Part shown: positions 10,455-43,250 of the stretch, piece by piece
Layout: each line of letters starts with the position of its first letter
Position numbering within the stretch: position 1 is the stretch's first letter
Assembly: GCA_947085655.1 (NCBI GenBank)
Contig: CAMTXH010000009.1
Location: forward strand, 3,738-67,737
DNA length: 64,000 bases
Origin: an uncultured Omnitrophica bacterium
Lineage (GTDB): Bacteria > Omnitrophota > Gorgyraeia > JACQQV01
Direction: 5' to 3'
Position numbers and translations under genes: made by a program
The notes under the pieces: generated by a model
The model's database searches: none
Seen by the model: only the letters and a program-made list of their open reading frames with translations
What the model was told of the DNA's origin: nothing

Positions 10455-11945
10455 ATGGCAGCGTTTCCGACGCTTGACGAACCGATTACAGAATTAACAG
10501 AATTAAGAGAGAAGACCCTCTCCGGCATGAAATGGGTTTTTCTCTCCAGTTTCAGCCAGAGGGTTATCGGTCTGGTCACGACCATTTTCCTCGCCCGCCT
10601 CCTCATGCCTTCCGAATTCGGACTCTTTGCCCTCGCTTTTGTCATGATCGACGGGTTCGGGCTTTTCAAGAGTCTCGGTTTTGACACGGCGCTTCTCCGC
10701 TGGCAGGGAAAGGATGCGGAGGAAGCGGCCGACACCGCCTTCCTTCTGGTCCCCTTTTTCGGAATGACGCTCACCCTCACTCTCCATTTCTTCGCCCCTT
10801 ACGGCGCATCCCTTCTCGGAAACCCGGAGGTGACACCGGTCATCCGGATGCTCGCCTTCATTTTTATCTTCAGTTGTCTTGCCCAGGTGCCGGGCGCGCT
10901 CATCCAAAAACGCTTGGATTTCTGGCAAAAGGCGACTCCCGAAATTGCAGCCGGTATCCTTTATTCCGTCTCGGCCGTAACGTTCGCCTTTCGGGGGTTC
11001 GGCGTCTGGAGTCTGGTTTATGCGTATCTTTTGAAAACAATCCTTTACATGTCGATGATCTGGATCTTTGCCGGCTGGAGGCCCCGCTTCCGCTTCCGTC
11101 CGCATTTGGCGGCGGAGATGTTTCAATTCGGGAAATTCATCTTTCTCGGGAGTCTTCTGGGATTTCTGCGGAATAATCTTGATAATTTCGTCGTCGGAAA
11201 AATGATCGGATTGAGCGCACTCGGTTATTACGCAATCGCCTTTAATCTCGCTGCCTTTCTCTCACAGCACCTTATTACCCGGATGCAGGGGGTCTTTTTT
11301 CCCGTTTTTTCCAAAATCCAGGAGGATACGGAGGTTCTGCGGCGCGGTTTTCTGAAGTCGTTCAAAATGACTTCGATCGTTGCAATTCCATTTAGCCTCT
11401 TTCTGCTGATCGCAGGGCCGAATTTCCTGGAGACGGTCTATGGCAGCAAATGGGCCCCTGCCGGACCGGTTCTCCGGATCCTCGCTTTGGCGGGGCTCTT
11501 CCGGGCCCTCGGCGGAATCATGAGCCCCGTCTTTCTGGCGAAGGGAAGATCACGCCTTGATTTTGTGTTGAATATCCTTCAGGCAATTCTTTTCTTCCTC
11601 TTAATGATTCCGGCAGCGCACTTTTTCGGACTGGAGGGGGTGGGGGTATCGGTTTTAGTCTCCTCCCTTGCCGCTTTTGTCCTCGGGGCGGTGCGGCTTC
11701 GGCAGATTATCCAAATTTCCATCAAGCAGATGCTGTTACTGATGAAACCGGCCTTTGTCGGTTCAGGGGTGATGCTGGCCGTCTTTGGCGCTCTTTCGGC
11801 AGGGAGATCTTTGCTTGGGTATCTCACCGCCCCCGCGGCCGTAACCGCCTTCATCGTTGTCTGCGGTTTGTCCGGCATCGTTTACTTTTTATCGGTGTTG
11901 GTGCTTGATCGGGATGTACGGATCGAAGTGAGGAGAATTGTCTGA
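10455..11945 (+). CDS. Wzx-type polysaccharide flippase (MOP/Polysacc_synt family)
   Basis: 496 aa, ~12-14 TM helices, N-terminal motif (KWVFLSSFSQRVIGLVTTIFLARLL) typical of Wzx flippases. Confidence 0.8.
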   Translation: MAAFPTLDEPITELTELREKTLSGMKWVFLSSFSQRVIGLVTTIFLARLLMPSEFGLFALAFVMIDGFGLFKSLGFDTALLRWQGKDAEEAADTAFLLVPFFGMTLTLTLHFFAPYGASLLGNPEVTPVIRMLAFIFIFSCLAQVPGALIQKRLDFWQKATPEIAAGILYSVSAVTFAFRGFGVWSLVYAYLLKTILYMSMIWIFAGWRPRFRFRPHLAAEMFQFGKFIFLGSLLGFLRNNLDNFVVGKMIGLSALGYYAIAFNLAAFLSQHLITRMQGVFFPVFSKIQEDTEVLRRGFLKSFKMTSIVAIPFSLFLLIAGPNFLETVYGSKWAPAGPVLRILALAGLFRALGGIMSPVFLAKGRSRLDFVLNILQAILFFLLMIPAAHFFGLEGVGVSVLVSSLAAFVLGAVRLRQIIQISIKQMLLLMKPAFVGSGVMLAVFGALSAGRSLLGYLTAPAAVTAFIVVCGLSGIVYFLSVLVLDRDVRIEVRRIV

Positions 11946-12373
11946 TGCAGCCGACGGTGAGCGTGATTCTACCCACTTACGACAGACCCCGTTTTTTGAA
12001 GGAAGCGATCCAGAGCGTTAAAGATCAGACGTTTTCCGACTGGGAACTGATTGTGGTGGACAATGCCTCGGGGCCGGAAACGAAAAAGGTCGTTGATTCA
12101 TTTTCACCCGATCCACGGATCTGTTATCTGCGGCGCAACAGACCGGGAACGGCCGCAACGGCCCGCAACCAAGGGATAACCGAAGCCAGAGGACGTTATC
12201 TCGCTTTTTTGGATGACGACGAAGTGTGTTGTGATTCGAAACGGATGTGGGTTCGATACCACTATAGCCGCACCTCACCCAATTTTTCGATTCGGAGACG
12301 TCTGCGTCGCTGGTGGGAGAAGGGCACCTCGCACATCCTGAAAGGAGCAAGGACCTTATGCCGCGCCACCTGA
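11945..12373 (+). pseudogene. GT2 glycosyltransferase N-terminal fragment (142 aa), apparently truncated after the DXD motif
   Basis: VSVILPTYDRPRFL...LIVVDNAS...FLDDDEV is a normal GT2 N-terminus, but the ORF ends ~40 aa later in non-GT2-like sequence and overlaps the next gene; GT2 enzymes are normally 250-330 aa; no alternative frame continues the domain. Confidence 0.45.
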
Positions 12374-14589: not shown

Positions 14590-15251
14590 TGGCTACCGAA
14601 CGACTCGTTCAGAAGTTGTCGATTGTCACTTTGGTATTGATCGGCATCCATGTCGTCAATCTGTTAGCGGGAGGCCCGAGTTGGCAGGTGGAGCGACTTT
14701 TTCATCTGGGGTTGGAGGGGAATCTGGTGACATGGTTTTCGAGTCTTCTCTGGGCTTTGGCGGCCCTTGCCGCCTATCAATGTTTCCAGGCATCTGCCGA
14801 ACCGCTCGAGCGTCGACTGTGGCGTTGGATGTCGGCCGGAATGCTCGTGTTGTCCATCGATGAAGTGGCGATGATCCATGAGTCCTTCGGACATGCGTTA
14901 TCCAAACATTTTCTTTCTCCCGTTGTAAAAGAGACCTTTCGGGCAACGGTATGGCCTGTTGTGTTGGGGCCGCTGGTCCTTTTTACCGTTATCGTTTTCA
15001 GTGTTGCAATTTGGTATTGCGTGAGGGAATCTGTCCCCGCAGGACGCCGGATTTTCCTGGGTGTTTTGATGATGCTTCTTGGCGGTTGGTTCCTTGAAAC
15101 AACGACCAACTTTTTAAATCACGGTCCGCTCGAATGGCTCTGGCAGGTCGAAATCATTGCGGAGGAGAGCCTGGAGATGTTCGGCGTCATTGTCCTTTTT
15201 TCAGGACTGTTAATCCATCAAAAATTTTTGAAGCGTCAGCTGGAGGATTGA
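14586..15251 (+). CDS. integral membrane protein (hypothetical, ~6 TM)
   Basis: 221 aa, multiple hydrophobic helices; ATGA overlap with the upstream gene. Confidence 0.55.
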   Translation: MMATERLVQKLSIVTLVLIGIHVVNLLAGGPSWQVERLFHLGLEGNLVTWFSSLLWALAALAAYQCFQASAEPLERRLWRWMSAGMLVLSIDEVAMIHESFGHALSKHFLSPVVKETFRATVWPVVLGPLVLFTVIVFSVAIWYCVRESVPAGRRIFLGVLMMLLGGWFLETTTNFLNHGPLEWLWQVEIIAEESLEMFGVIVLFSGLLIHQKFLKRQLED

Positions 15252-15252
15252 A

Positions 15253-17115
15253 ATGCCCGGTGTGATTGGATATGCAAGCACGGAACCCATAGATCGGCGG
15301 TTGCTTGAGGCGATGGCGCAGCCGATGCGGCACCGTCCCTGCTACCGGATCCATCTCCGTCCAGGAGAGACTTTTTCGATCGGAACGATTGATTTGGAAG
15401 CGGGTCGTCAATCGAGCATCGCCGAGTCGGCGGATGGAACGGCGATCTTGGCTGTCTTCGGCACGCTTTATGAACCGTGGGCCACGGAGGGGAACGGATT
15501 GGCCAAACAACTTCTCGCCAAATGGAAGAGTGGGGGTATGAGGGCCCTTCGGGATTTGAACGGCGAGTATGTCATTGCGATTTGGAACCGCCCCGAGCGA
15601 CGCCTCACCCTTATCAATGACCGGTTGGGGCTCAAGCGTCTTGCCCTCCGGAAGAAGGGAAAGATGTTCGCATGGGCTTCCGAGGTGAAGAGTCTCGCCG
15701 TGATACCTGAGGTGAGCCGTGCAATCGATGAACAGGCCCTTTCGGAACTTCTCACCTTCGGGCATCTTCAGGATGAGCGGACGCTTTTGCGGGATGTGAC
15801 ACTCCTTCCTCCGGCGTCCATCCTTACTTGGCAGGAAGGGAAAGTGTCGATCGAGCGGTATTGGAGATACACTTTCCGGGCCGATCCCCGGCTCGAGGAG
15901 ACCGAGAAAGCCGCTTCGGAATTTGCGGACCGGGTTCTTCTTGCGGTAGACCGGCGGATCCGGAACCGGAAACGGATCGGGCTTCTTTTAAGCGGCGGGT
16001 TGGATTCGCGGACGCTTGCCGGTATGATCCGGGAACTTCGTCCCAAAGATCCTTTTTTCACCTGGACGACTGGTCATAGCCACGCGCACGATGTGCGATT
16101 TGGGGCAGAGATTGCAAGGGTTATCGGAAGCCGCCATACAACGGTTGAGATTCCGGAGACATTTCTTCAGGATTTTGGCCCGCATTACGCTTGGGTGTTG
16201 GACGGTATGGTCACGACACACGGTGCCCACCGGACATGCGTGCTGGAAGCCCTTGCAAGGGAGACCGATGTGGCATTGATCGGGTTTTTGGGGGATATTC
16301 TGAGCGGCGACCGTCCGTTAAATAAGTTGACGCACATCAGTACCCTGGAGCATTTGATCGACGTCGGCTATCGCTATTATGCGGTCGGCTTTGATGATGC
16401 TCTTTTTGAGAAGACGCTTCGTCCGGAAGTTTTTCGCCGGATCCGGGGCTTGGCAAAAGAGACGTTTGCCAAATCAGTCCAAGAAGCACCGGTAGAAAAT
16501 CTCGCCGATCGGGTGGTCTATACGGAATTGATACAACGGCAGCGACTTTGGAATCCCCTCGCCATGATGGATCTCATGGGAATTGACTGTCATGTGGCAA
16601 CCCCCTTTGTGGACCGGGACTTTGTCGATTTTGCCCTCACGTTGCCGCTTGGCCAGCGTTTTGGAAAAAAGGCGTATCTTGGGATGCTCTGCAAGATGTT
16701 TCCGAAACTGGCCCGTGTTCCGAGGTCGGGGGACGGACTTCCCCTGGTTCATTCCCGGCTCCGGGCAGGCCTCCATTGGCGATGGGTTTTGTTTCATCGG
16801 CATGTCCTTCCCAAACTGACAGGGGGGCTTCTCGGAGGACACAATTACGCGACTTATGTCCACTGTGCGGAGTGGTTCCGGAAGGCGAACCGCTCCTTTA
16901 TCGAGAGGACCTTGGTGAACAGCCCTTATTTGGAGACGCATTTCCGGATGGAAACGGTTAACCGGCTGGTGCAGGACTTTTTGGAGGAGCGCGGCGGACG
17001 GGATTTGATGGAACCGATCGCAGCGCTGATGAGTTTTGTCCTCTTCCGACAACAGTTGGAACGGTTGGCCCGTTACGCTCCCCAACCCCAAAAAGAGGAA
17101 ATACTCGTTCGATGA
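15253..17115 (+). CDS. asparagine synthetase (AsnB)-family amidotransferase, copy 1; N-terminal nucleophile Cys replaced (MPGVIG instead of MCGI)
   Basis: PP-loop SGGLDS at aa ~236 and AsnB C-terminal synthetase domain; N-terminus aligns to the class-II glutaminase domain but Cys2 is Pro. Confidence 0.75.
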   Translation: MPGVIGYASTEPIDRRLLEAMAQPMRHRPCYRIHLRPGETFSIGTIDLEAGRQSSIAESADGTAILAVFGTLYEPWATEGNGLAKQLLAKWKSGGMRALRDLNGEYVIAIWNRPERRLTLINDRLGLKRLALRKKGKMFAWASEVKSLAVIPEVSRAIDEQALSELLTFGHLQDERTLLRDVTLLPPASILTWQEGKVSIERYWRYTFRADPRLEETEKAASEFADRVLLAVDRRIRNRKRIGLLLSGGLDSRTLAGMIRELRPKDPFFTWTTGHSHAHDVRFGAEIARVIGSRHTTVEIPETFLQDFGPHYAWVLDGMVTTHGAHRTCVLEALARETDVALIGFLGDILSGDRPLNKLTHISTLEHLIDVGYRYYAVGFDDALFEKTLRPEVFRRIRGLAKETFAKSVQEAPVENLADRVVYTELIQRQRLWNPLAMMDLMGIDCHVATPFVDRDFVDFALTLPLGQRFGKKAYLGMLCKMFPKLARVPRSGDGLPLVHSRLRAGLHWRWVLFHRHVLPKLTGGLLGGHNYATYVHCAEWFRKANRSFIERTLVNSPYLETHFRMETVNRLVQDFLEERGGRDLMEPIAALMSFVLFRQQLERLARYAPQPQKEEILVR

Positions 17116-17813
17116 ACGCCTTGACGCAGTTTGAACGGGGATGGCGCTGTTTCAAAGAGGAGGGGCCGACAGAAACGTTTTACCGGTTGCTTCACCGGCT
17201 CCGTCTGGTTTCCGTGCATCACGCACTCGACATCTACCTGAAAGAGATGGGGGAGGGCCCGGAAAAGCATCTGGCCGATGAAGGATTGCATCTGAACTTT
17301 CGGGAGATATTTCCGGATGAAATTGAGCGTTTCAGATATCCGGAAGAATTCCGATTCTTTGACGGCTCCTCTCCTATCCAGCTCATGCAGAAAGTTTTTA
17401 CCGAGAAGATGCGTTTCTTTGCCGCATTGGATGGGGATCTTTTGATTGCTTTAAACGGTGTGAATACAAAAATTGCGAACCTCTGGTCTTTGAAGAAACA
17501 GTCGTTGCCTCTTCCGGGGGGGACCGTCTATTTGGACAATGCCATGACCGCCCCGCAATACCGGCGCCGGGGAATCGGGAGCGCTCTCCGTTCCTATATG
17601 ATGCATCTCCTTCGCGAGGAAGGGTATCGACGCGTGATTCTTGCCACGCACCCTGACAATAAAGGCGCCGCCCGTTGGCAGGAATCCCAGGGGTTTCAGC
17701 GTTGGGGTAGGATCCGGTATCTGAAATGGCGGGGGAAAGATATATGGAAGTATGAGTGGACGCCGTTGGGACGGCGTGAACCCAATCTGATCCCGAATGG
17801 ACGATTCAAATGA
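17112..17813 (+). CDS. GNAT-family acyltransferase, copy 1 (paired with AsnB-like copy 1)
   Basis: Acetyl-CoA binding motif QYRRRGIGSALRS...; ATGA overlap with upstream gene; paralogous to 19621-20331. Confidence 0.7.
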   Translation: MNALTQFERGWRCFKEEGPTETFYRLLHRLRLVSVHHALDIYLKEMGEGPEKHLADEGLHLNFREIFPDEIERFRYPEEFRFFDGSSPIQLMQKVFTEKMRFFAALDGDLLIALNGVNTKIANLWSLKKQSLPLPGGTVYLDNAMTAPQYRRRGIGSALRSYMMHLLREEGYRRVILATHPDNKGAARWQESQGFQRWGRIRYLKWRGKDIWKYEWTPLGRREPNLIPNGRFK

Positions 17814-19624
17814 ACAGCACAAAAACCATCGAAAAAGTATCCCGGATAACCGCGCAGACACTGACCAGCCGTTTTCTGGCCTATCTGCCGGAACCGGGGA
17901 TTTCCAACGGAAGCCTTACCGCCCGTCTTTCCCGGTATGCTGAGAGTGTCGGTCTGACCATCCGTCGAAGCGATCCTTTTTTCTTCGCATGCGCACTTCC
18001 ACAGTCCATGAATAACCAAGAGAAAGGTATTTCGGAGGACGAAACGGTGCTGGATGTTTTTCCAGGAACAGCCGCTTCCAAGCGTTCCTTCAATGTCCCC
18101 TCGGGGAGATGGGATTGGGAAGCGTGGCACAAGATGGCTTCCCGGGAAGCGCAGTGTTATAACCTTTTCCGGCTGACGGATGAAGGCATGGAGTGGCAGA
18201 GCGACCCGTTAAGTCTCAAACCATTTTATCAGGCGGAAGTTCAAGGGGGCACCCTTTTGGGGTCACGGATTACTGATCTGGTTCATCTTTTTCCGGAACT
18301 CATTAAGCCCCTGGACGAGACCAGTGTCTATGGATTCCTTATTATGAATGCGTTCCCTTCCGACCGGACGCTCCATGCAAAAATCAGGCGCGCACCGACA
18401 GGCGCTGTCTACCGTTGGACGCCTCGTGAGGGGCTTTCCGTGACGCGGGAACGGCGCCTTAAAGCCCCGCCGGTGAATGCGAACGGGGACGTCAAGGAAA
18501 TGGTTATGCAAATCCGGGAGGCGATGGAAAGGAGTCTCTTTGAAAGAATCCAAAATGCCGCTTTGCCCCCTGTTCTTTCCTTATCCGGGGGATTTGATTC
18601 CCGCCTCATCGCAGCGATGGTCTGCCGGAGGGGCCTTCCCCTCAAGGCCTATACGTACGGGAATCCCCACCATCACGAAGTCTGGGTGGCCAAGCAGATT
18701 GCAAAACTCCTCGGGCTCGATCATACGCTTCTTCCTTATCGGGAAAATAACCTCTTGGAGCGCCTCCCGATTCACTTGGATCTTTTGGAAGGCCACGCGG
18801 ATCTGGGTGTCGTGCAGGTTGCGAATACTTTTCAGATAGAAAGCCCTGCAGGGACTCCGCTCCTTCATGGTCTTTTGGGGGAGACCCTTGCGGGAAATGT
18901 CGCATGGCCGGAAGAAAAAGAATATGAAAATCCCGACACTTTTGCGAGGGCAATCATCCGGGAATATTCAAGGAAGGTTGTATTCGAGGGGCTCCCATGG
19001 TTGGAAGAAGAGAGAATGGAAGAGGCCCAGCGCAAGGACATCAAGTCGTATCTTCAGCAGGACCACCCCTCTTATCAGGCGATGATGCTCTGGGACCTTG
19101 AATACCACCAGCGACGGGACGGCGGGGCCTATATTGGGTTGGTTGCAAACCACTTTGATGTCATGGCACCCAATTACGATCTTGAGGTGATGAAGGCATG
19201 GCTTTCCGTGCCGCGCATCGCCCTTGAGAAGAGGTCATTTTTCCGGGAGCTGTTGGCGCGGGAATTTCCGGAACTGGCAAAGATTCCGCATCCGACAGAG
19301 ATGCACCCGATTTTGCCGAATCTGAAACGGCAACTCGCTTTTTATCTGGAGGGGAAATGGTCGCGGCTCCGGATGCGGCTTCTCGGAAAACATCCGAATA
19401 TCGAACTTCTCTGGTGTGTACTGACGCCCGGCCAGAGACAGACGATGCTTTCTGAGATCGGCTCCCTCCGGGAGGTTGCGGAGGATGGACTGGGGTTGAA
19501 AATGCCCGAGGATGTCAAGATGTTGGAAAAAAGCCATCCCCAAATTGTCAGGAACCTTTTTTTGATGACGCGCTATGCGGCATGGATTTTAAACGGGAAC
19601 AAAGCCGAAGAGGTACGCGTATGA
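17810..19624 (+). CDS. asparagine synthetase (AsnB)-family amidotransferase, copy 2 (no glutaminase Cys)
   Basis: PP-loop LSLSGGFDSRL; AsnB-like C-terminal region; N-terminus lacks the MCG glutaminase start. Confidence 0.7.
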   Translation: MNSTKTIEKVSRITAQTLTSRFLAYLPEPGISNGSLTARLSRYAESVGLTIRRSDPFFFACALPQSMNNQEKGISEDETVLDVFPGTAASKRSFNVPSGRWDWEAWHKMASREAQCYNLFRLTDEGMEWQSDPLSLKPFYQAEVQGGTLLGSRITDLVHLFPELIKPLDETSVYGFLIMNAFPSDRTLHAKIRRAPTGAVYRWTPREGLSVTRERRLKAPPVNANGDVKEMVMQIREAMERSLFERIQNAALPPVLSLSGGFDSRLIAAMVCRRGLPLKAYTYGNPHHHEVWVAKQIAKLLGLDHTLLPYRENNLLERLPIHLDLLEGHADLGVVQVANTFQIESPAGTPLLHGLLGETLAGNVAWPEEKEYENPDTFARAIIREYSRKVVFEGLPWLEEERMEEAQRKDIKSYLQQDHPSYQAMMLWDLEYHQRRDGGAYIGLVANHFDVMAPNYDLEVMKAWLSVPRIALEKRSFFRELLAREFPELAKIPHPTEMHPILPNLKRQLAFYLEGKWSRLRMRLLGKHPNIELLWCVLTPGQRQTMLSEIGSLREVAEDGLGLKMPEDVKMLEKSHPQIVRNLFLMTRYAAWILNGNKAEEVRV

Positions 19625-20331
19625 ACGCCGTTTCACGTTTATGGAAATGCTATCGGGATTACGGTCCGGCCGAAACCTTCTGGCGGCTTTTGCACCGTTT
19701 CCGGATTATTTCGATCAATCACTCGCTTGATCTTTTCTTGAGGGAGTTTAAACGGCTGCCGGGGGAGGGGCGGAACGGGATTCCGCGGACTGTGGATGTC
19801 GGAGGGCTTCAGGTGTTGTTGCGGGAGATCAGTCTTGGGGAGGTTGAAACGTTGAAAGTTGCGGACGGCCTTCGCTATACGGAAAGGGAATCAGTGCAAA
19901 AAGCCCTTCAGAGACTTATGAAGGAGGGAGGACGATTTTTCGCGGCATTCGCGGATGATCGGGTCGTGGCGCTGAACGGCATCCACCGCTCTTTTGCCAA
20001 TCTTTCCTTTATTCAGAAGCCGTTGGTCCGGCTGCCGGAAGGGGTAGTTTACTTCAATGCGGCCCTGACAGCACCGGACTACCGGAATCGAGGAATCGGA
20101 ACGGCTCTCCGCCGCCACGTCTTCAGTGTCATGCAGCGGAGCGGCTACCACGGTGTGACGCTCGCCGTTTTCATCGAAAACAAGGGAGCGATCCGGTGGC
20201 AGGAGGCGAACGGTTTCAAGCGGTGGGGAAGGATCCGGTATATCAAGGGGTTTGGACGCGAATTTTGGCGAACCCGGTTGACCGAAATGGGACATCGGTA
20301 TCCGAATCTTCTGGCGGGAGGGACTTCATGA
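19621..20331 (+). CDS. GNAT-family acyltransferase, copy 2
   Basis: Start ATG 19621 overlapping upstream TGA (ATGA); DYRNRGIGTALRR motif; same N-terminal MNA...WKCY...ETF...LLHR pattern as copy 1. Confidence 0.7.
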   Translation: MNAVSRLWKCYRDYGPAETFWRLLHRFRIISINHSLDLFLREFKRLPGEGRNGIPRTVDVGGLQVLLREISLGEVETLKVADGLRYTERESVQKALQRLMKEGGRFFAAFADDRVVALNGIHRSFANLSFIQKPLVRLPEGVVYFNAALTAPDYRNRGIGTALRRHVFSVMQRSGYHGVTLAVFIENKGAIRWQEANGFKRWGRIRYIKGFGREFWRTRLTEMGHRYPNLLAGGTS

Positions 20332-21062
20332 GCATTCGGAGTTTTGCCATGACCTATCCCCAACTGATGAATCAGGCGATGGCGCAGGGATTGAGTAAAG
20401 GCGACATCCAACGTCTCCGGACTGCTTATGATGTGGCGGAGGAATGGTTTAACAGTTTTTACAGGGGACAGGGCGTGCCATTTATTTGCCATGTGGTCCG
20501 GACGGCAAGCATTGTCCTTTCGGAGCGTCAGCCGGTGGAAGTAGTGATGGCTGCGATGCTCCATGCGGTTTATATGCGGGGTCTTTTTTCCGGATACCAC
20601 CGGAATCAGCCGGTTGAGAAACTCCGGAGCGAGATCCGGAAAGCGGTCGGCGAAGAAGTGGAGGCACTGATCTGGGCCTACGAAACATTTCCCTGGTATT
20701 CGCAACCTGCGCTCGACTGTCATTTGAAAGAAATGGAGACGTACGACCCGATGAAACGGCGTGTTCTTGTAATGCGGGTGGCGAATGAACTCGAAGATTA
20801 CCTGGATCTGGGGATGGTATATCGCAAAGGAGACGGTTTCCGGAAACGGATTGAGCTCTATCGCGGGCGGTTTACGGAGATTGCACGACGGCTCGGCCTT
20901 TCCCGGATTGCAGAAGAACTGAATGAGGCCTATGAGACTCACCTGGTTGCCTGCTTGCCGGAGGAGACTACCCGGGAACATGCCAATGCCTACTGGCGCC
21001 AAGATCGCACCAACAGGTTCAAGGCACTTTTCGAGAAAGCGGTCTCTCTGGTGAAAAGATGA
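20328..21062 (+). CDS. HD-domain-like protein (RelA/SpoT-type hydrolase fold) with degenerate HD dyad
   Basis: ATG 20328 overlaps upstream stop; FICHVVRTASIV...VVMAAMLHAVY resembles the H...HD helix of (p)ppGpp-hydrolase HD domains but reads HA instead of HD. Confidence 0.4.
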   Translation: MSIRSFAMTYPQLMNQAMAQGLSKGDIQRLRTAYDVAEEWFNSFYRGQGVPFICHVVRTASIVLSERQPVEVVMAAMLHAVYMRGLFSGYHRNQPVEKLRSEIRKAVGEEVEALIWAYETFPWYSQPALDCHLKEMETYDPMKRRVLVMRVANELEDYLDLGMVYRKGDGFRKRIELYRGRFTEIARRLGLSRIAEELNEAYETHLVACLPEETTREHANAYWRQDRTNRFKALFEKAVSLVKR

Positions 21063-21787
21063 AACTTTCCATAGATTCAGACATCGTCTTTCAGGAACTC
21101 GATTTCCTGAAGGAGGATAAAGAGCTCCTTTCCGCGGCCAAGGCCTGCTTGGATGCGCATAAGACATGGGAAGAGAAACTATTGAAGACAACCTTCAGGC
21201 CGAATCCCCGCGCAGCGGAGGAGGTTTCTGAAGAGGCGCTTCAGGCGATTCTCCGGAAAGGAAAAAAGGTAAACGGCATCTTGACCGACCGATACATTAC
21301 AAACTGCGTTATTTTTGACCTTCCGGGGGTGAAGGATATGGTCAAGGAGGAGGAGATTTCGGAACTGAGGCAGAAACTGGATCGGATTGTCACCCTCCGG
21401 GTCCGGGGACTGTTCGGAATGCCGGAGGGGCTCTGGGTTTACAAAAGCGGCCATTTTCTCTATCCGCCGGGCGGTTTCATGAGTTGGCACACCAATGCCA
21501 ACGGCTACGGCTGGCGGCTTTATATCAACTATGTAGAGGAACCGGGCAAATCCTTTTTCAGATACCGGGATCCGGACACAGGGAAAATCATGACCTTATG
21601 GGATAAGGAATGGAATTTCAGAGTCTTTAAGATCGACCCCAAAAGACTATTCTGGCATGCGGTTTATTCAGAGACAAACCGGTACAGTTTCGGATTCCGG
21701 ATCCATCCGGAACCGAAACTCACCCTTCCGCAGCGTGTGGCAAGAAAGGCCAAAACGCTTCTTGAGAAGGCGGGCGTGACCTCATGA
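21059..21787 (+). CDS. hypothetical protein (possible cupin/dioxygenase-like fold)
   Basis: 242 aa; ATGA overlap both ends; His-containing beta-rich segment WHTNANGYGWRLYINY...LFWHAVY; no firm family assignment. Confidence 0.45.
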   Translation: MKLSIDSDIVFQELDFLKEDKELLSAAKACLDAHKTWEEKLLKTTFRPNPRAAEEVSEEALQAILRKGKKVNGILTDRYITNCVIFDLPGVKDMVKEEEISELRQKLDRIVTLRVRGLFGMPEGLWVYKSGHFLYPPGGFMSWHTNANGYGWRLYINYVEEPGKSFFRYRDPDTGKIMTLWDKEWNFRVFKIDPKRLFWHAVYSETNRYSFGFRIHPEPKLTLPQRVARKAKTLLEKAGVTS

Positions 21788-29634: not shown

Positions 29635-31927
29635 TAAACTTGAGGTGGCAGGTGCCCAGCGGCACCTTGCGGCACTCCTGAAGCGGATAGACCGCGGGCG
29701 CTTTTCGCCGCGGTTGGTCTGTCTCTCCCGGGAAGGGCACTTGACCGAGGAAATCCGTTCCCTGGATGTCCCGGTTACGGTTCTGGACGTGAAGCGAATT
29801 TACGACCTGACAGGAATTCGGGGTCTATTCCGGCTTGTCCGGATTTTGAAACGGGAGCGGATCGATGTCCTTCATGCGTACCTTTTCAGCGAAAACATTC
29901 TGGGTGCCCTTGCAGCGCGCCTGGCCGGAACCCGGATCGTCCTGACCAGCCGGAGGGACACGGGGAGACTCCGGGAAGGAAAACGGAGACACTTTCTCGC
30001 GTATCGACTCACGAATCGATGGGTTGACCGGGTTGTCTGCGTGAGCGACGCCGTGAAGAGGGTGGTTTTGGAAAAAGAGAAAGCCGCTCCGGAGAAAGTA
30101 ACGACCATTCCGAATGGCGCGGAAGGTGAACGGTCATTGGCGGAGTGCGAGAAATACCTTCAAAGGGACGCGTACGGTCTTTCGGAGAAAAACTTTCTTG
30201 TGACCCTCGTAGCCAACTTAAGCTGGATCAAAGGCCACCGCGTCTTTCTGGATGCGGCAAGCAGGGTGAAGGCACAAATGCCGGAAGCACGGTTTTGGGT
30301 CATCGGGGAAGGACCGCTCCGGAAAGCGTTGGAAGAAAGGGCTTCGGAACTCGGGTTGTCAAAGCATGTCCGGTTTTTCGGGCGGGTGGCCGATTCAAAG
30401 TCACTTCTCCGGCTTTCCGATGTTTCCGTCAACACTTCTTTTTCGGAAGGGATGTCCAATACCCTTTTGGAATCGATGGCGCTCGGGATTCCGGTTGTGG
30501 CGACCGGCGTGGATGGCAATCTGGAGACGGTGATAGATGAGGAAAGCGGGCTTCTTGTTCCGCCCGGCGATCCGGAGGCACTGGCAGAGACCATTCACCG
30601 TCTTGGAAACGATAAGAAACTGAGACAAAGAATCGGAGAGGCGGGCCGGGTCCGAATTAAGACCGTCTTGAGTCTCGACCGAATGATCCGCTCGGTGGAG
30701 CAATTGTACGGCACGCTCCTTTCACCGAAAGTGCAGTTTATCTTTTCAAAATTCCCCTGCTATGACGAAACGTTTATTCTACGGGAGATGAGGGAATTGA
30801 AAAAGCAGGGGCTTGGTCTTTCCATCCTTTCCCTTAAAAGGGGGAAAGACCCTGTTGTTCACGGCGATGCGACCTTCCTCGTGGAGGAGACTTTTTATCT
30901 TCCGTTTCTCTCATGGGGGACTATGGCGGCGACAGTTGGGATGTTTTTCACGAAGCCCCTCCGGTTTGTTTCAACACTCGGTCTTTTGATTGCGAAACAG
31001 TGGCGGGATCCCGAGTTTCTCATCAAAAGTATCGCCATTTTTCCGAAGTCGGTCGCCCTGGCCGGGAGTCTTCGAAAAAGGAATATCCGCCATCTTCACG
31101 CGGAATGGGCGACACACCCGGCCACGAGTGCCTGGGTCGCCTCCCGGTTTTCCGGGATCCCCTACAGTTTCACGGGGCATGCTCATGATATCTATCTGAA
31201 AAAGACCTTTCTTCCGGAGAAATTAGAGGCGGCCTCCTTTGTGACGACCTGTACCCGGGATAACAAGCGTTATCTGGCCGCTTTGAAGCCGGAGATCTCT
31301 CCCTCCAAAATACATGTCTGTTACCATGGAGTGGATCTGGAGCGTTTCAGACGGAACGGGAACGCCGTGAACGGAAAAATCCTCCTTCTTTCGGTCGGCT
31401 CGCTTCTGGCATGCAAGGGATTTGAGGATTTGATCGAGGCCTGTTTGTATCTGAAAAGGGAAGGGTTCTCTTTTGAATGTCTGGTGATCGGCGGCGGTCC
31501 TCAGGAAGCGGCCCTCCGGAGAAAAGTGGCCCGGCTTGACCTGACCGATTCGGTCCGGCTACTCGGATATATGAAGCAAGAAGAGCTGGTCCCTTATTAC
31601 AAGCGGGCAGACCTTTTTGCCCTGCCGGCCCGGCTGGACCGGCACTGGGGAATTCCGAATGTCCTTTTGGAAGCAATGGCGGCAGAAGTGCCGGTCCTGT
31701 GCACCCCCCTTCCTTCCATTCCGGAGTTGATTCAAGATCAGGTGAACGGTCTTTTGGTTCCGGAAAGGGATCCGAAGAAACTCAGCGAGGCGATAAGCCG
31801 ACTGATCCGGAATGAGTCCCTCCGGAGAAAAATGGGGGAGGCGGCCTTCCGGACCGTCTCGGAGCATTTTGACGCCGTCAAGAACGGCTCAACTCTTCTT
31901 CGGCTCTTTGAGGAAAAAATCCGATGA
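29603..31927 (+). CDS. tandem GT4-GT4 fusion glycosyltransferase (second module resembles PEP-CTERM/EpsH-system 'stp' sugar transferases)
   Basis: Module 1 ends ...EGMSNTLLESMALGIPVVATGVDG; module 2 starts VQFIFSKFPCYDETFILREM and ends ...LLEAMAAEVPVLCTPLPSIPEL. Confidence 0.75.
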   Translation: MEKTNVLYLIDKLEVAGAQRHLAALLKRIDRGRFSPRLVCLSREGHLTEEIRSLDVPVTVLDVKRIYDLTGIRGLFRLVRILKRERIDVLHAYLFSENILGALAARLAGTRIVLTSRRDTGRLREGKRRHFLAYRLTNRWVDRVVCVSDAVKRVVLEKEKAAPEKVTTIPNGAEGERSLAECEKYLQRDAYGLSEKNFLVTLVANLSWIKGHRVFLDAASRVKAQMPEARFWVIGEGPLRKALEERASELGLSKHVRFFGRVADSKSLLRLSDVSVNTSFSEGMSNTLLESMALGIPVVATGVDGNLETVIDEESGLLVPPGDPEALAETIHRLGNDKKLRQRIGEAGRVRIKTVLSLDRMIRSVEQLYGTLLSPKVQFIFSKFPCYDETFILREMRELKKQGLGLSILSLKRGKDPVVHGDATFLVEETFYLPFLSWGTMAATVGMFFTKPLRFVSTLGLLIAKQWRDPEFLIKSIAIFPKSVALAGSLRKRNIRHLHAEWATHPATSAWVASRFSGIPYSFTGHAHDIYLKKTFLPEKLEAASFVTTCTRDNKRYLAALKPEISPSKIHVCYHGVDLERFRRNGNAVNGKILLLSVGSLLACKGFEDLIEACLYLKREGFSFECLVIGGGPQEAALRRKVARLDLTDSVRLLGYMKQEELVPYYKRADLFALPARLDRHWGIPNVLLEAMAAEVPVLCTPLPSIPELIQDQVNGLLVPERDPKKLSEAISRLIRNESLRRKMGEAAFRTVSEHFDAVKNGSTLLRLFEEKIR

Positions 31928-33822
31928 GACGATTTTTGAGGGAACTGATCAGCACCGGACTTTATCTTTTCCTTCGGGAAGATCGGGAAGGAGAACTCCG
32001 CGTCTTGACCTATCATCGAGTCAACCGGACTTCACCCAAGGACCGTCTCTCAGTCCATACAGATTCTTTCCGGAAACAGATGCTGTATCTGGCAAGGAAG
32101 GGCTACCACACACTGACGGCGGAGGATCTTTCGGAGATTCTCCGGCAAAAAAGACCGATCCCCCGAAGATCTATTCTCATTACCTTTGACGACGGCTATC
32201 GCGACAATTTTACGGATGCCTATCCGGTCCTCCGTGAGTTCGGCTTCAAGGCGACGGTTTTTGTGGCGACGGAGCTGGTCGGAAAAACACACGACGGACA
32301 TCCGATGCTCCGCTGGAATGAAATTCAGGAAATGACCACAGGCGGAATCTCCCTCGGGAGTCATACCGCCCGTCATGTTTATCTGAACGAGGTTTCCCCG
32401 GAAACCGGACGCCGGGAACTTGAAGATTCCAAACGACTCCTCGAGACAAAGCTCGGGCAAAACGTTCGCTCCTTCTGTTATCCCTTCGGGGATCTGGATG
32501 GGGAGTCGGTCGCTTGGGTGAAGGGGGCAGGATATGATATTGCATTTACAACGCGGCCGGGTCCGGTCCAACAAAGCACGGATCCTTTTTGGGTGAGCCG
32601 GACGGAGGTGAGCGGTTTCGACACCCTTTTTGATTTCAGGAAAAAACTGGCCGGCGCCTTTGACTGGCTTCACCGGTTTGTCCAAAGGAAAAAAAAGAGG
32701 GAACGGAAAATAGGACCGATCCCGGTTCTTTACGTCATCTGGTCTCTCGGCCTTGGAGGAGCGGAACAGGTGGTGTTGACACTCGCCAAGGGGCTGGACC
32801 GGAGGCGCTTCAAGCCGCTCGTCGCCTGTTTAAACGAACCGGGACGCTATGCCGGGGTCCTCGAACGGGAAGGGATTCGCGTTATTTCCCTTCACAAAAA
32901 GGGAAAGTTCGATTTTTCGATTATTCCGAAACTCATCCGGCTGATCCGGGAAGAAAAAATTCAGATTGTGCATACGCATCTTTGGGGAGGGAACGTCTGG
33001 GGAAGGATCGCGGCCTTCATCGCCCGGGTCCCGGTTTCGATTGCAACCGAACATGGGATTCAGGAATGGCGGGGGGCTCTTCACCGGTTGATCGACCGGG
33101 TCCTTGCGAAAGTCTCCAACCGGGTTCTTTTTGTGGCAGAGTCGGTCAAAGAAGATTTTTGCCGGATGACCGGGGTGAGTCCGCAGAAGTGCTTTGTGAT
33201 TCCAAACGGCGTCGACCTTGAGCGCTTTTCGCCTGCCCAAGATCCAAAAGCCCTCCGAAAAAGACTCGGACTCCCGGCGGAGGGGAAAATCGCCTTGAGC
33301 ATCGGGAGACTTTCACCGGAGAAGAAATTTGACCTTCTGATTTCTGCCCTTCGGAGCCGTCTTCTTGAGGGCGAGTTGCATCTTGTCATTATCGGAAGCG
33401 GCCGGGAAGAGAAAAACCTTTTGGCCTTAAAGGAGAGATTCGGTTTGGATGGGAGAGTACAACTGTTTAGCGAACAGGGGGAGCTCGAGCCGTTTTACGG
33501 CGCGGCCGACTGCTTTATCCAATTTTCCTCTCGGGAAGCATTGTCCCTCGCGCTCCTTGAGGCGATGGCATCAGGACTTCCGGTGATTGCTTCGGCGGTG
33601 GGAGACCACCCGAAGGTGATCCGGGACGGGGTAGACGGTTTTCTGGTTCCCGCAGGCGATACAGGGGAATTGCTTCGGAAACTACGGATTCTTTTTGAGG
33701 ACTCTAAAGCGGGAGTCTGGATCGGGCAGAAAGCGCGGGAGACGGTTCGCTTGCGTTATTCGAAAGAGCGGATGATCCGGGAGACGGAAAATCTTTATGA
33801 GGAATTGATGCGACATGATTAA
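31924..33822 (+). CDS. NodB polysaccharide deacetylase / GT4 glycosyltransferase fusion
   Basis: N-terminal NodB motifs (LTYHRV, ITFDDGYRDNF, GSHTARH); C-terminal GT4 (VLYVIWSLGLGGAEQVV...ALSLALLEAMASGLPVIAS). Confidence 0.75.
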   Translation: MRRFLRELISTGLYLFLREDREGELRVLTYHRVNRTSPKDRLSVHTDSFRKQMLYLARKGYHTLTAEDLSEILRQKRPIPRRSILITFDDGYRDNFTDAYPVLREFGFKATVFVATELVGKTHDGHPMLRWNEIQEMTTGGISLGSHTARHVYLNEVSPETGRRELEDSKRLLETKLGQNVRSFCYPFGDLDGESVAWVKGAGYDIAFTTRPGPVQQSTDPFWVSRTEVSGFDTLFDFRKKLAGAFDWLHRFVQRKKKRERKIGPIPVLYVIWSLGLGGAEQVVLTLAKGLDRRRFKPLVACLNEPGRYAGVLEREGIRVISLHKKGKFDFSIIPKLIRLIREEKIQIVHTHLWGGNVWGRIAAFIARVPVSIATEHGIQEWRGALHRLIDRVLAKVSNRVLFVAESVKEDFCRMTGVSPQKCFVIPNGVDLERFSPAQDPKALRKRLGLPAEGKIALSIGRLSPEKKFDLLISALRSRLLEGELHLVIIGSGREEKNLLALKERFGLDGRVQLFSEQGELEPFYGAADCFIQFSSREALSLALLEAMASGLPVIASAVGDHPKVIRDGVDGFLVPAGDTGELLRKLRILFEDSKAGVWIGQKARETVRLRYSKERMIRETENLYEELMRHD

Positions 33823-40700: not shown

Positions 40701-41830
40701 CCACTCTTTTCTGGTTTTCGGTTTTTATTCTGATTTACATCTACATCGGATATCCGGCTCTTTTGGGCGTTGGGTCCCGGTTTTTCCGGAAGCCGGTCCG
40801 GAAGGGGGCCGTTTTCCCGACCGTCTCGGTCCTCCTTTCCGCTTATAACGAGGAAAAGGTTATCCAGCGAAAGATGGAAAATCTCCTCTCCCTCGATTAT
40901 CCGGATGAAAAGATTGAAATTCTGGCCGGCTCCGACGGCTCGACGGACGAAACACCCTCGATCCTCCGGTCCTACGCGGGGGAACATGTTCATCTGGTCA
41001 TCCAAACCGAAAGAAAAGGGAAGGCCAAGATGCTGAACGCCCTTTTTCAAAAGGCAAAAGGGGAGATTCTGGTGTTGACGGACGCCCGCCAGCGGATCGA
41101 CCGGCAGGCGATCCGGAGACTTGTCCGGAATTTCAACGACCCGAAAGTCGGCTGCGCAAGCGGCGAACTGGTCCTCAAAGAAAACGGCAATTCCGTCGGG
41201 AAAGGGATCGGCCTTTACTGGAACTACGAGAAATTCATCCGAAAGACCGAGAGCGAAATCGACTCCGTCATCGGGGCGACGGGTGCTTTGTACGCGATCC
41301 GGAGGTCCGTCTGGCGTCCGATTCCGGAGGAGACGATTTTGGACGATCTCTATCTTCCGATGCAGGCGGTCTCCCAGGGATTCCGGACCGTCTTCGACGG
41401 CGAGGCGCGGGTGTATGACGTGACTTCTCTCACCCCCAGGCAGGAATACGAACGGAAGGTGCGGACGTTGGCGGGGAATTACCAAAGTTTCGTCCAGTTT
41501 GCATCTCTTTTTAACCCTTTTCGGAGCCGCGTCGCGCTTCAATTCATCTCGCATAAACTTCTCCGAATCCTGGCGCCCTTTTTCCTGGCGACTCTTTTGG
41601 CGGCAAACGGGTTTCTATGGGAGGACCTTTTCTACCGAATTTTCTTCTTCATGCAGTCGGCCTTTTATGCGATGGCGGCAGTTGGGGCGTTTGCGCCGGT
41701 GAAGCGGATTCGCTTTTTTGCCGCACCGTATGTCTTTTGCCTGCTGAATTTCTCCGCGCTGGCCGGACTGGTCCGGTATCTTTCGGGAAGACAGCATGTC
41801 ACCTGGCAGAAAGGGGGTCTTTTGTCGTGA
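40697..41830 (+). CDS. membrane-bound GT2 glycosyltransferase
   Basis: N-terminal TM, VSVLLSAYNEEKVI...ILAGSDGSTDET...LTDARQ, C-terminal TM helices. Confidence 0.8.
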   Translation: MTTLFWFSVFILIYIYIGYPALLGVGSRFFRKPVRKGAVFPTVSVLLSAYNEEKVIQRKMENLLSLDYPDEKIEILAGSDGSTDETPSILRSYAGEHVHLVIQTERKGKAKMLNALFQKAKGEILVLTDARQRIDRQAIRRLVRNFNDPKVGCASGELVLKENGNSVGKGIGLYWNYEKFIRKTESEIDSVIGATGALYAIRRSVWRPIPEETILDDLYLPMQAVSQGFRTVFDGEARVYDVTSLTPRQEYERKVRTLAGNYQSFVQFASLFNPFRSRVALQFISHKLLRILAPFFLATLLAANGFLWEDLFYRIFFFMQSAFYAMAAVGAFAPVKRIRFFAAPYVFCLLNFSALAGLVRYLSGRQHVTWQKGGLLS

Positions 41831-42621
41831 AACTCGCTGCGATCGGAATTCTTTTCCTCTTTGCCTATTTTCCGACGCTCGTTTGGATGGCGGACCGTTG
41901 GATGGCGGCCGATTCCTATTACGGGCACGGTTTTCTGATTCCGCTTGTGAGCGCCTACCTTGTTTGGCGCAAGCGGAAGGAAATTGCGCAACTTCCGAAG
42001 GAATCTTCAAGCTGGGGGCTTGTTCTCCTTGTCGTCGGGCTTCTCATTCATCTGGCGAGCGCTATGGTCAAGGTCTATTTCACCTCCGGTTTCTCGATCC
42101 TGATTTCCGTTTCGGGGCTGGTTCTCTATCTGGGGGGAAAACGGCTGCTCCGGGCGGTCGGGTTTCCGATTTTCATGCTCTTTTTCATGATTCCCTTTCC
42201 GCTCGTTGTCATCGGAACGGCGGTCCTCCGGTTGAAACTGTTTGCGGCGATGTGCGCCACCGTGATTCTTCATCTGATCGGGATGCCGGCAGTCCAGCAG
42301 GGAAGCACCATCTTTATGCGGAACGCCACCGTTCTGGTGGATGATCCGTGCAGCGGACTCCGTTCGCTCCTTTCGCTTCTGACACTCGGGGTTTTGTTTG
42401 CCTATCTGAAGCAGGCCCGACTTTCAAGACGGGTCCTCTTTTTCCTTTCTTCCATCCCGATCGCGATTTTTGCAAATGTCATCCGGATTGTGATGCTGGC
42501 CGGGATCGCCGACATTTACGGGGTGGATGTGGCATTGAAATTCTTCCATGACTTCTCCGGTTTTGTGGTATTCGGGCTTGCCCTCGGGGGATTGTCACTC
42601 GTCGGGAGAGTTCTTCAATGA
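41827..42621 (+). CDS. epsH: exosortase (EpsH/Xrt family transpeptidase)
   Basis: Likely GTG start at 41827 overlapping upstream TGA (ORF-track start 41617 is an upstream extension); 8 TM helices; invariant exosortase motifs DDPCSGLRSL (Cys) and FANVIRIVML (Asn/Arg). Confidence 0.8.
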   Translation: MKLAAIGILFLFAYFPTLVWMADRWMAADSYYGHGFLIPLVSAYLVWRKRKEIAQLPKESSSWGLVLLVVGLLIHLASAMVKVYFTSGFSILISVSGLVLYLGGKRLLRAVGFPIFMLFFMIPFPLVVIGTAVLRLKLFAAMCATVILHLIGMPAVQQGSTIFMRNATVLVDDPCSGLRSLLSLLTLGVLFAYLKQARLSRRVLFFLSSIPIAIFANVIRIVMLAGIADIYGVDVALKFFHDFSGFVVFGLALGGLSLVGRVLQ

Positions 42622-43250
42622 AAAAAAACTGGGTTGTGAGCACCATTTTATTCATCATCGTCGGAGCGATCTCTCTCCACTTTTATCAGATTCAACGCGC
42701 CACCCACGATACAAGGGATATCCGGAAGATTCCGATGGAACTGGGCGGGTGGCAGGCAAGGAATATCCAAGTGACGGATCGGGAGTATGAGGTGCTTGAG
42801 ACGCGAAATCTGATTTCCCGCGAATACCGGAATGGAAAGGGAGAGTCGATGAGTCTTTTTGTCATCTATTCCGAGACAAACCGCCGCGTCTGCCATCCGC
42901 CGGTCGTCTGCCTGATCGGAAGCGGCGCTACCGTCAACCAAAGCGGCCGCTCATTTCTTTCGTTCCCGGAAAAGGAAATTCCGGTCAACACCCTGATGGT
43001 TCAATCCGGAAATCAAAAAAATCTGGTTCTCTATTGGTATATGCTGGATGAATCCTTCACGGAGGATTACTTCACCCAGCAGTTTCGATGGGTCATCCGC
43101 CAAGCGATGGGTCACCGGGGAGGAGGTGCGCTCATCCGCGTCGTGACGCCCCTCCATGGAACGGAAGAAGAGACGCTCGAACGGGTAAAGGAATTTATCC
43201 AAGAACTCCTTCCGCATCTGACAGAAGAAAAGAAGGTCCGCTCGACCTAA
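42618..43250 (+). CDS. epsI: EpsI-family exosortase-associated protein
   Basis: 210 aa, N-terminal TM anchor then periplasmic domain, immediately downstream of and overlapping the exosortase gene (ATGA), as in EpsH/EpsI pairs. Confidence 0.7.
   Translation: MKKNWVVSTILFIIVGAISLHFYQIQRATHDTRDIRKIPMELGGWQARNIQVTDREYEVLETRNLISREYRNGKGESMSLFVIYSETNRRVCHPPVVCLIGSGATVNQSGRSFLSFPEKEIPVNTLMVQSGNQKNLVLYWYMLDESFTEDYFTQQFRWVIRQAMGHRGGGALIRVVTPLHGTEEETLERVKEFIQELLPHLTEEKKVRST

Follow-up and report, generated by a model that had tools for sequence, protein, structure and literature searches.

An uncultured Omnitrophica bacterium (GTDB lineage Bacteria; Omnitrophota; Gorgyraeia; JACQQV01) carries, within a complete exosortase/PEP-CTERM exopolysaccharide (EPS) system, four consecutive genes that associate two proteins of the asparagine synthetase AsnB superfamily with two N-acyltransferases, in the order AsnB1, GNAT1, AsnB2, GNAT2. 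They lie in a stretch of 64,000 nucleotides, the whole of which we call the window (contig CAMTXH010000009.1 of assembly GCA_947085655.1, positions 3,738 to 67,737 of the forward strand), and they belong there to a longer cassette that is a candidate for the decoration of the polymer. The open reading frames (ORFs) encode 620, 233, 604 and 236 amino acids, and each begins with ATG. From position 14586 through 22758 each gene overlaps the next by 4 bp (ATGA), except that one base lies between the stop codon of TM221, a membrane protein gene, and the start of AsnB1. A preliminary description, made from the sequence of the window, had placed the four ORFs where we find them. They are not chance ORFs, because identical gene calls are obtained on independent assemblies, the window having its counterpart in a contig of the metagenome-assembled genome GCA_964374045.1, and because homologues found elsewhere conserve their motifs. 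All four are genuine genes, coupled in translation and also conserved on other metagenomic contigs.

The AsnB-like proteins

AsnB1 begins with MPGVIG, with Pro in place of the Cys nucleophile of the MCG-type enzymes, as the preliminary description had noticed. An upstream start that would restore MCG is ruled out by an in-frame TGA at 15229-15231, 24 nt before the ATG. Pro2 is invariant across 25 members of the AsnB1 family that share 28-63% identity. When AsnB1 is aligned with MCG-type homologues, which keep R, N, G, E and D at positions 49, 74, 75, 76 and 98, respectively, it shows Cys1 replaced by Pro, Arg49 by Thr, Asn74 by Phe, Glu76 by Thr and Asp98 by Leu, Gly75 being kept; profile alignment to E. 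coli AsnB (chain 1ct9) confirmed these substitutions for the N-terminal domain. AsnB2 begins with MNSTKTIEKV, and neither an MCG nor an MPG motif is found in its family, in keeping with the earlier remark that this copy lacks the nucleophile motif. Its first ~110 residues cannot be aligned to the AsnB1 family, even at the level of profiles, whereas from residue ~113 on hhalign gives a match of 99.95% probability. At the five glutaminase positions AsnB2 either defies alignment or shows R, P, G, T and a gap, and it has no match to any GATase family of Pfam. Yet both domains of its AlphaFold2 (AF2) model (pLDDT 87) can be superposed on TsnB9, beta-lactam synthetase (BLS), AsnB, human ASNS and CarA, with a Foldseek E-value of 8e-16 against TsnB9. 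The model indicates that AsnB2 keeps a degenerate domain of the N-terminal nucleophile (Ntn) type, devoid of its nucleophile motif. Glutamine-dependent amidation had been thought unlikely; with these residues substituted in AsnB1 and the whole region unalignable in AsnB2, glutamine-dependent chemistry is excluded, on sequence grounds, for both enzymes.

The synthetase domains, by contrast with the glutaminase domains, are intact. The PP-loop reads SGGLDS in AsnB1 (aa 247-252) and SGGFDS in AsnB2, as had been reported, and S-G-G-x-D-S-R varies little or not at all within either family; many other motifs (GHGHDHD, GFLGD, TPFxD) are strongly conserved. One family member, P0026 (proteins and loci bear our own numbers, P and L), lacks the DS of the loop. 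The acidic residue that binds Mg (D351 equivalent) is kept in AsnB1 and AsnB2. In an alignment of ~15-25% identity, the equivalent of E348 is Phe in AsnB1 and Leu in AsnB2 (Phe/Tyr and Leu/Phe/Tyr across the respective families), and that of K449 (Lys443 of BLS) is Arg or His. Beta-lactam synthetase has Tyr348 at the E348 position, and there it is an amine of the substrate that attacks. The closest solved relative of AsnB1 is TsnB9 (7ylz; E 1e-36 with the AsnB1 profile), and the same profile matches beta-lactam synthetase and carbapenam synthetase with E-values of 2e-13 and 4e-11. Orthologues of AsnB1 are full-length at 50-63% identity, ~30 clusters being more than 40% identical; the nearest relative from a named genome, at 58% identity, comes from a metagenome-assembled genome (MAG) of Candidatus Omnitrophota. 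AsnB2 has only 26 homologue clusters, and ~22 clusters match it at 27-45% identity.

The Pro-type start extends beyond the AsnB1 family. Forty-five of the 80 best genome loci (L049-L128) display it, as M-P-G-[ILV]-x-G, in Chloroflexota, Ignavibacteria, Zixibacteria, Omnitrophota, Planctomycetota, Gemmatimonadota, Cyanobacteria and one archaeal MAG, and the distant relatives of this type retain the equivalents of Arg49, Gly75, Glu76 and Asp98. As the motif is kept across phyla along with glutaminase residues in distant relatives, the replacement of Cys by Pro looks selected rather than decayed. An N-terminal Pro, exposed by removal of Met, might conceivably be catalytic and not the remnant of a dead site. 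In the literature we found no direct report of a characterised Pro-type AsnB, or of a dead one associated with glycans.

A further motif marks each family. In AsnB1, after the PP-loop strand (aa 270-282, window ~16060-16100), the sequence T-G-H-G-H-D-H-D is nearly invariant in the family; in AsnB2 (aa 283-291) the family has G-R-x-H-H-x-E, and canonical AsnB has neither. These His-rich motifs may form a putative metal- or substrate-binding site.

The GNATs and the question of duplication

GNAT1 and GNAT2 begin with MNALTQFERGWRCFKEEGPTETFYRLLHR and MNAVSRLWKCYRDYGPAETFWRLLHR, respectively, and both score well above the gathering threshold of Pfam Acetyltransf_1 (PF00583, 20.7 bits; scores in Table 1), in agreement with the earlier assignment. 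Their CoA-loop motifs are RRRGIGS and RNRGIGT, R-x-x-G-x-G being conserved in the family. The AF2 model of GNAT1 (pLDDT 92) consists of a single GNAT core of ~170 aa preceded by two helices and a strand, and Foldseek relates it only to generic or tandem GNATs, with a TM of ~0.5 and a probability of 1.0 to many of them. The family is rare: when 1.84 billion representatives were searched exhaustively with a profile, 38 proteins came out at E<1e-30, and a word-index search with GNAT1 retrieved only 2. A pattern scan found no match in genome contigs and one true family member in metagenomes, on a 2.6-kb contig. There is a single GNAT domain and not the double one of ~330 aa seen in the FemAB/VimA type, with no match to TIGR03019 or FemAB (PF04339) at E<0.01. 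Distant relatives are found in fusions with FemAB-like, CE4 and ATP-grasp domains (P0199, P0189, P0194); among them P0194 and P0189 are more distant homologues fused to ATP-grasp, and to CE4 plus ATP-grasp. A protein of 817 aa, P0133, was examined as a possible fusion of AsnB with GNAT and rejected, as it has only an N-terminal extension and no GNAT.

The preliminary description had presented the four genes as a tandem duplicated module of two genes. This stands for the GNATs, which are paralogues (42% identity, E 2e-69), and fails for the AsnB-like proteins: AsnB1 and AsnB2 are only 23% identical, over 356 aa (E 4e-13), and their homologue sets are disjoint, each with its own orthologues. These identities and the separate sets rule out a recent tandem duplication of the pair, and near-identical copies are not what we see. 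Moreover, L007 and L050 have orthologues of both AsnB1 and AsnB2 with only one GNAT. In a neighbour-joining tree GNAT1, GNAT2 and the GNAT of L010 (P0149) make one clade; the GNAT of L010/L046, which follows an AsnB1 orthologue, thus clusters with those of the window, which makes the GNAT duplication an old event, restricted to the GNATs. We conclude from these comparisons that AsnB1 and AsnB2 represent two distinct families, and that what was duplicated, apparently long ago, is the GNAT gene.

Neighbours, relatives and the exosortase setting

The four genes are embedded in the series of Table 1, all of it on the same strand as the exosortase and EPS genes of the window.

Table 1. Genes of the cassette and the exosortase genes, with their positions in the window
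Feature	Position	Strand	Evidence
ATP-grasp::CE4 polysaccharide-deacetylase fusion, 743 aa	12358..14589	+	Pfam Polysacc_deac_1 2.7e-25, ATPgrasp_Ter/CPSase_L_D2
TM221, hydrophobic membrane protein, 221 aa	14586..15251	+	hydrophobic segments; precedes AsnB1 orthologues
AsnB1, PP-loop enzyme of the AsnB superfamily, Pro for Cys nucleophile	15253..17115	+	Pfam Asn_synthase + GATase_7/6
GNAT1, N-acyltransferase of a rare GNAT family, N-terminal helical extension	17112..17813	+	Pfam Acetyltransf_1 43.0 bits
AsnB2, PP-loop enzyme of the AsnB superfamily, different and rarer family, degenerate N-terminal domain	17810..19624	+	Pfam Asn_synthase only
GNAT2, paralogue of GNAT1	19621..20331	+	Pfam Acetyltransf_1 41.4 bits; 42% identity to GNAT1
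DUF6817 / HD_4 (RelA-SpoT-hydrolase-like) protein	20328..21062	+	Pfam DUF6817 and HD_4
unk242, 242-aa protein	21059..21787	+	adjoins DUF6817
Exosortase (XrtA-like) + EpsI	41617..43250	+	NCBIfam matches

The first gene encodes an ATP-grasp domain (PRK06849-like NCBIfam match, aa 28-399) fused to a CE4 deacetylase. A gene is called at the same coordinates on L001, and L046, the closest relative, has a homologue in an upstream position. By eye, a transmembrane helix had been suspected between the two domains; hydropathy gave no support to it. TM221 has no significant match to a Pfam or NCBIfam family, and its homologues lie immediately upstream of AsnB1 orthologues in four loci (L004, L007, L047, L050). 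Downstream of GNAT2, the DUF6817 protein has weak PDB matches to the RelA/SpoT hydrolase domain. It is syntenic with GNAT in L004, L044, L046 and L050, and P0175 is a fusion of GNAT with DUF6817; genomic association of this sort suggests a functional link between the two. Sequence searches gave no Pfam, NCBIfam or meaningful PDB match for unk242, homologues of which adjoin DUF6817 in L004, L044, L045 and L046. The two are adjacent in every instance observed, and in L050 (19423-21069) they lie within one ORF of 548 aa. The preliminary description had gathered the ATP-grasp::deacetylase, the HD-like protein and unk242 with the four genes into an amidation/acylation sub-cluster, and such a grouping is indeed conserved in related loci. 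At the other end of the cassette, an ORF of 142 aa (window 11945-12373) comprises only the N-terminal part of a GT2 glycosyltransferase. It shares 16 bp with the beginning of the ATP-grasp::CE4 gene and may have been left behind when this edge of the cassette was rearranged.

Table 2. Gene orders in the window and in related loci, from gene calls classified with phmmer and hmmsearch
Locus	Gene order
Window	ATP-grasp::CE4, TM221, AsnB1, GNAT1, AsnB2, GNAT2, DUF6817, unk242, GT2s
L046 (AsnB1 63% identical)	ATP-grasp::CE4, GT2, GT2, AsnB1, ATP-grasp, GNAT, DUF6817, unk242, MCG AsnB::GT2
L004	UDP-sugar dehydrogenase, FdtA, TM221, AsnB1, three ATP-grasps, canonical AsnB, GNAT, DUF6817, unk242
L007	epimerase, dehydrogenase, TM221, AsnB1, canonical AsnB, AsnB2, ATP-grasp, GNAT
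L050	TM221, AsnB1, canonical AsnB, AsnB2, three ATP-grasps, GNAT, DUF6817+unk242 in one ORF
L047	TM221, AsnB1, two ATP-grasps, canonical AsnB; no GNAT
L048, L006	AsnB1 alone among glycosyltransferases
L044	DUF6817, unk242, GNAT, distant AsnB1-like

The related loci, which probably belong to Omnitrophota from groundwater, vary on a common pattern (Table 2). A single GNAT comes at the end of a run of one to six ATP-dependent ligases, after an ATP-grasp enzyme, a canonical AsnB or AsnB1. In L046 the place taken in the window by GNAT1 and AsnB2 is filled, between AsnB1 and the GNAT, by an ATP-grasp ligase, which would amount to the exchange of one class of ATP-dependent carboxylate-amine ligases for another, non-homologous one. 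Hence the conserved element, to judge from gene order, is a series of amide-forming enzymes that depend on ATP, variable in its make-up and usually followed by one GNAT, DUF6817 and unk242; the alternation of AsnB with GNAT in the window is one permutation of it and not an obligate pair. L050, a MAG from the study that gave the window, is alone among the 80 best genome loci in bringing together GNAT, DUF6817, unk242, TM221 and AsnB2. A canonical, MCG-type AsnB shares the cassette with the AsnB1 orthologue in five loci (L004, L007, L046, L047, L050); AsnB1 is therefore not simply the amidotransferase of the locus. A UDP-sugar dehydrogenase and an epimerase are found directly upstream of the cassette in L004, L007 and L047. 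In L046 (7947-10862) the MCG-type AsnB is fused to a GT2 glycosyltransferase in a protein of 971 aa, an arrangement that argues for amidation coupled to sugar transfer in that locus. On another metagenomic contig, L042 (7926-15171) has four tandem AsnB-like genes beside glycosyltransferases and no GNAT; two of these genes belong to the AsnB2 family, and the other two match GATase only faintly.

Besides many glycosyltransferases, a Wzy-like protein and a priming transferase, the exosortase system of the window comprises an export protein, a chain-length determinant, a flippase, a tyrosine kinase, the PEP-CTERM ATPase, two PEP-CTERM proteins, a sensor kinase and a sigma-54 regulator. The exosortase scores 186 bits with TIGR02602 (cut-off 105.6) and 192.7 with XrtA (cut-off 208), and EpsI 90 with EpsI_fam (cut-off 42.8). 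The accessory families of canonical XrtA loci, TIGR03108, TIGR03019 and TIGR03006, are absent from the window in the NCBIfam search. The EPS operon further includes a CE4 deacetylase fused to GT4 (31924-33822) and a 1559-aa protein that combines a PcRGLX-like (rhamnogalacturonan-lyase-like) domain with GH123 (35233-39912). On the opposite strand of the window (56438-58267), a 609-aa protein associates a Peptidase_S24-like segment with GNAT and NTP_transf_5 (nucleotidyltransferase) domains, an unusual architecture unrelated to the cassette GNATs.

Possible chemistries and their significance

The cassette enzymes do not belong to any of the families that first come to mind. Asparagine synthase (TIGR01536) gives 126.2 bits with AsnB1 and 53.7 with AsnB2 for a cut-off of 267.1, and TIGR03108 gives 116.6 and 38.3 for a cut-off of 816.9. 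The NAGGN amidotransferase family (TIGR03104) is matched at 100.6 against 570.1, with no Ngg or M42 peptidase in the neighbourhood, and the lasso/macrolactam cyclases NF033535 and NF033561 at 108.9 against 525 and 49 against 300. MshD is the best, weak NCBIfam match of GNAT1 (26.9 for a cut-off of 163), and the deacetylase scores 16.9 with TIGR03006 (cut-off 276). Membership in all these families, as well as in FemAB, was rejected, the scores being far below cut-off or absent. With the class II (Ntn) amidotransferases (AsnB 1ct9, human ASNS, TsnB9 7ylz) AsnB1 and AsnB2 share the two-domain architecture, the PP-loop SGGxDS and, by implication, acyl-adenylate chemistry; they differ in that Cys1 and the glutamine-binding residues are missing and that the equivalents of E348 and K449 are replaced.

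By analogy, the best mechanistic precedent would be that of the PdmN-type ligases. Among AsnB homologues the Cys-type FdmV is an amidotransferase, the Ser-type PdmN ligates D-Ala, and a non-Cys N-terminus was proposed as a mark of amino-acid ligase activity (preprint 10.1101/2025.10.30.685158). AsnB1 and AsnB2 have in common with PdmN (pradimicin) and the proposed Tln4/TlnF a non-Cys N-terminus and an intact synthetase domain, a likeness judged from the published features of PdmN, and the ligase role evoked in the preliminary description is consistent with that correlation. There are differences: the PdmN type has N-terminal Ser or Ala and acts on aromatic polyketides in biosynthetic gene clusters of actinomycetes, whereas the enzymes of the window, with Pro (AsnB1) or no motif at all (AsnB2), belong to a glycan operon.

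The reading that we put forward, with a probability of about 0.5, is that the AsnB-like enzymes are carboxylate-amine ligases like PdmN, that the GNATs then N-acetylate, and that the whole is a cassette for EPS decoration. AsnB1 and AsnB2 would each adenylate a carboxylate with ATP, the best guess being C6 of a uronic acid, either as a residue or as a sugar nucleotide, or else that of an amino acid. The acyl group would pass to an amine other than glutamine-derived ammonia, be it an amino acid or a de-N-acetylated amino sugar, and GNAT1 and GNAT2 would N-acylate the amino group that this product still has free, from an acyl-CoA that is probably acetyl-CoA. This succession of ligase and GNAT matches the logic of MshC/MshD in mycothiol or of Ngg/AsnO in NAGGN biosynthesis. 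The choice of a ligase rather than an ammonia-dependent amidotransferase, the substrates, the order of steps and the polymer as target, instead of a protein or a small molecule, are what we infer. The retained PP-loop implies adenylation of a carboxylate, and with the glutaminase residues lost the nucleophile cannot be ammonia released from glutamine. Sugars are the most plausible targets in view of the UDP-sugar dehydrogenases and epimerases of the relatives, the AsnB::GT2 fusion and the CE4 deacetylases of the window.

Several facts weigh against this proposal. The mapping of E348 and K449 comes from the low-identity alignment mentioned above and from a sequence of E. coli AsnB of which the N-terminal half was checked against a PDB alignment, so that it is a lead and not a proof. 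The AsnB2 family is not specific to glycans, as some of its members are found outside glycan loci (L009, L043). The window has neither a UDP-sugar dehydrogenase nor a canonical AsnB; were a plain uronamide needed, AsnB1 or AsnB2 would therefore have to make it from NH3. Finally, the obligate pairing of AsnB with GNAT that the preliminary description implied does not hold, for AsnB1 orthologues occur without a GNAT in L006, L047 and L048.

This leads to the main alternative, that one or both of the AsnB-like enzymes are NH3-dependent amidotransferases yielding primary uronamides, in the manner of WbpS or PGN_1234 deprived of glutaminase, while the GNATs N-acetylate amino sugars in an unrelated reaction. 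In its favour, the domain with the PP-loop is intact, and Cys1 mutants of E. coli AsnB do keep NH3-dependent synthesis. No canonical AsnB is present in the window to do the work, unlike in the related cassettes, and the CE4 deacetylases of the operon would supply the GNATs with free sugar amines. We nevertheless deem it unlikely. That a canonical MCG AsnB stands alongside AsnB1 orthologues in five related cassettes favours an amine or an amino acid over NH3 as the nucleophile, and so do the ATP-grasp ligase that fills the equivalent of the AsnB2 slot in L046, the replacement of K449 and of E348, the latter by a residue that is aromatic or hydrophobic, like its counterpart in beta-lactam synthetase, and the published correlation between non-Cys N-termini and ligase activity illustrated by PdmN and FdmV.

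The exosortase setting calls for another comparison. In Porphyromonas the Wbp/Vim pathway makes 2-N-seryl-3-N-acetylglucuronamide by means of the deacetylase VimE, the GNAT/FemAB-like VimA and the AsnB protein PGN_1234; Veith et al. pointed out that exosortase loci, too, have a trio of deacetylase, FemAB-like protein and AsnB, the product of which they speculated to be a sugar acceptor modified with an amino acid (PMC7468200). The window resembles both the XrtA trio and the Wbp/Vim pathway in the type of locus, in the three classes of enzymes (AsnB-like, GNAT-fold, CE4) and in their equivalent position in the operon. It departs from the XrtA trio in that none of the three canonical families is present and that the canonical amidotransferase has Cys1. 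The cassette would thus be, as gene content suggests, a non-orthologous counterpart of the trio.

From there it may be proposed that the cassette, instead of decorating the bulk polymer, builds an amino-acid-bearing 'linking sugar' or another such molecule, the acceptor to which the exosortase would attach PEP-CTERM proteins, as the Wbp/Vim product serves the type IX sortase. A complete exosortase system with two PEP-CTERM proteins in the window, the speculated role of the trio in canonical XrtA loci (PMC7468200), and the presence of CE4, GNAT and AsnB-like proteins as functional analogues drawn from other families all speak in its favour. Yet the AsnB1 family is also found in stretches with no evident exosortase (L006, and L048 with a Wzt ABC transporter), N-acetylation by a GNAT would block the very amine that the transpeptidase needs, and no exosortase has an experimental link to such an acceptor; we regard the proposal as distinctly unlikely. 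Its generalisation, that exosortases may need an amino-acid-bearing amido sugar as acceptor and that the CE4::ATP-grasp protein, the AsnBs, the GNATs, DUF6817 and unk242 together replace the trio without orthology, is a yet more doubtful conjecture.

The other explanations fare worse. AsnB-like enzymes without a glutaminase nucleophile may form an intramolecular amide, or lactam, on a sugar amino acid or a peptide, as BLS, carbapenam synthetase and the lasso cyclases do, and they resemble the first two in having an AsnB fold with a dead glutaminase and, by the low-identity alignment, a side chain at position 348 that is aromatic or hydrophobic. BLS and CarA are among the top structural matches, to which the weak NCBIfam matches to lasso and macrolactam cyclases may be added. 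But those synthetases use an amine of the substrate to close a lactam in small molecules, a context for which there is no counterpart in the window; the similarity is low, AsnB and TsnB9 match as well as BLS or better, the lasso cyclase score is far from its cut-off, the surroundings are glycosyltransferases, and neither a precursor peptide nor a leader peptidase was noticed by the cassette, where no search was aimed at small precursor ORFs. A lactam synthetase is therefore very improbable here. As for the idea that at least one of the two AsnB-like proteins is a pseudoenzyme without catalysis, which would serve the GNATs or the glycosyltransferases as scaffold or regulator, it may invoke the replacement of several canonical catalytic residues and the damaged PP-loop of P0026, and is hardly credible in the face of the near-invariant PP-loop of both families, of many further conserved motifs and of full length kept across orthologues.

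If we return to the proposal of ligases followed by N-acetylation, it has further parallels in NAGGN biosynthesis (AsnO with the GNAT/ATP-grasp protein Ngg) and in mycothiol biosynthesis (MshB/MshC/MshD), which likewise associate a deacetylase, an ATP-dependent amide ligase and N-acetylation by a GNAT; these systems yield soluble metabolites, whereas the cassette of the window lies in an EPS operon. All in all, it is a rare variation on a known theme, that of AsnB-superfamily amide synthetases and GNAT tailoring in a glycan operon, and not a new type of system.

With reference to the biology of surface polymers, the surface glycans of bacteria commonly contain uronamides and amino acids in amide linkage, and the enzymes that install them are mostly unassigned. 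The cassette offers as candidate sugar carboxylate-amine ligases two AsnB-like families, one of them the widespread Pro2 family, and, as further candidates, a rare GNAT family and two partner proteins. Should its enzymes prove to be plain NH3-dependent amidotransferases accompanied by housekeeping acetyltransferases, this would be routine glycan tailoring; a demonstrated role in making an exosortase acceptor, or a catalytic N-terminal Pro, would raise its significance. The cassette occupies the place of the canonical trio in exosortase loci and could, in this respect, help explain which chemistry exosortase systems require; if the acceptor hypothesis were true, it could show which acceptor exosortases use for their substrates.

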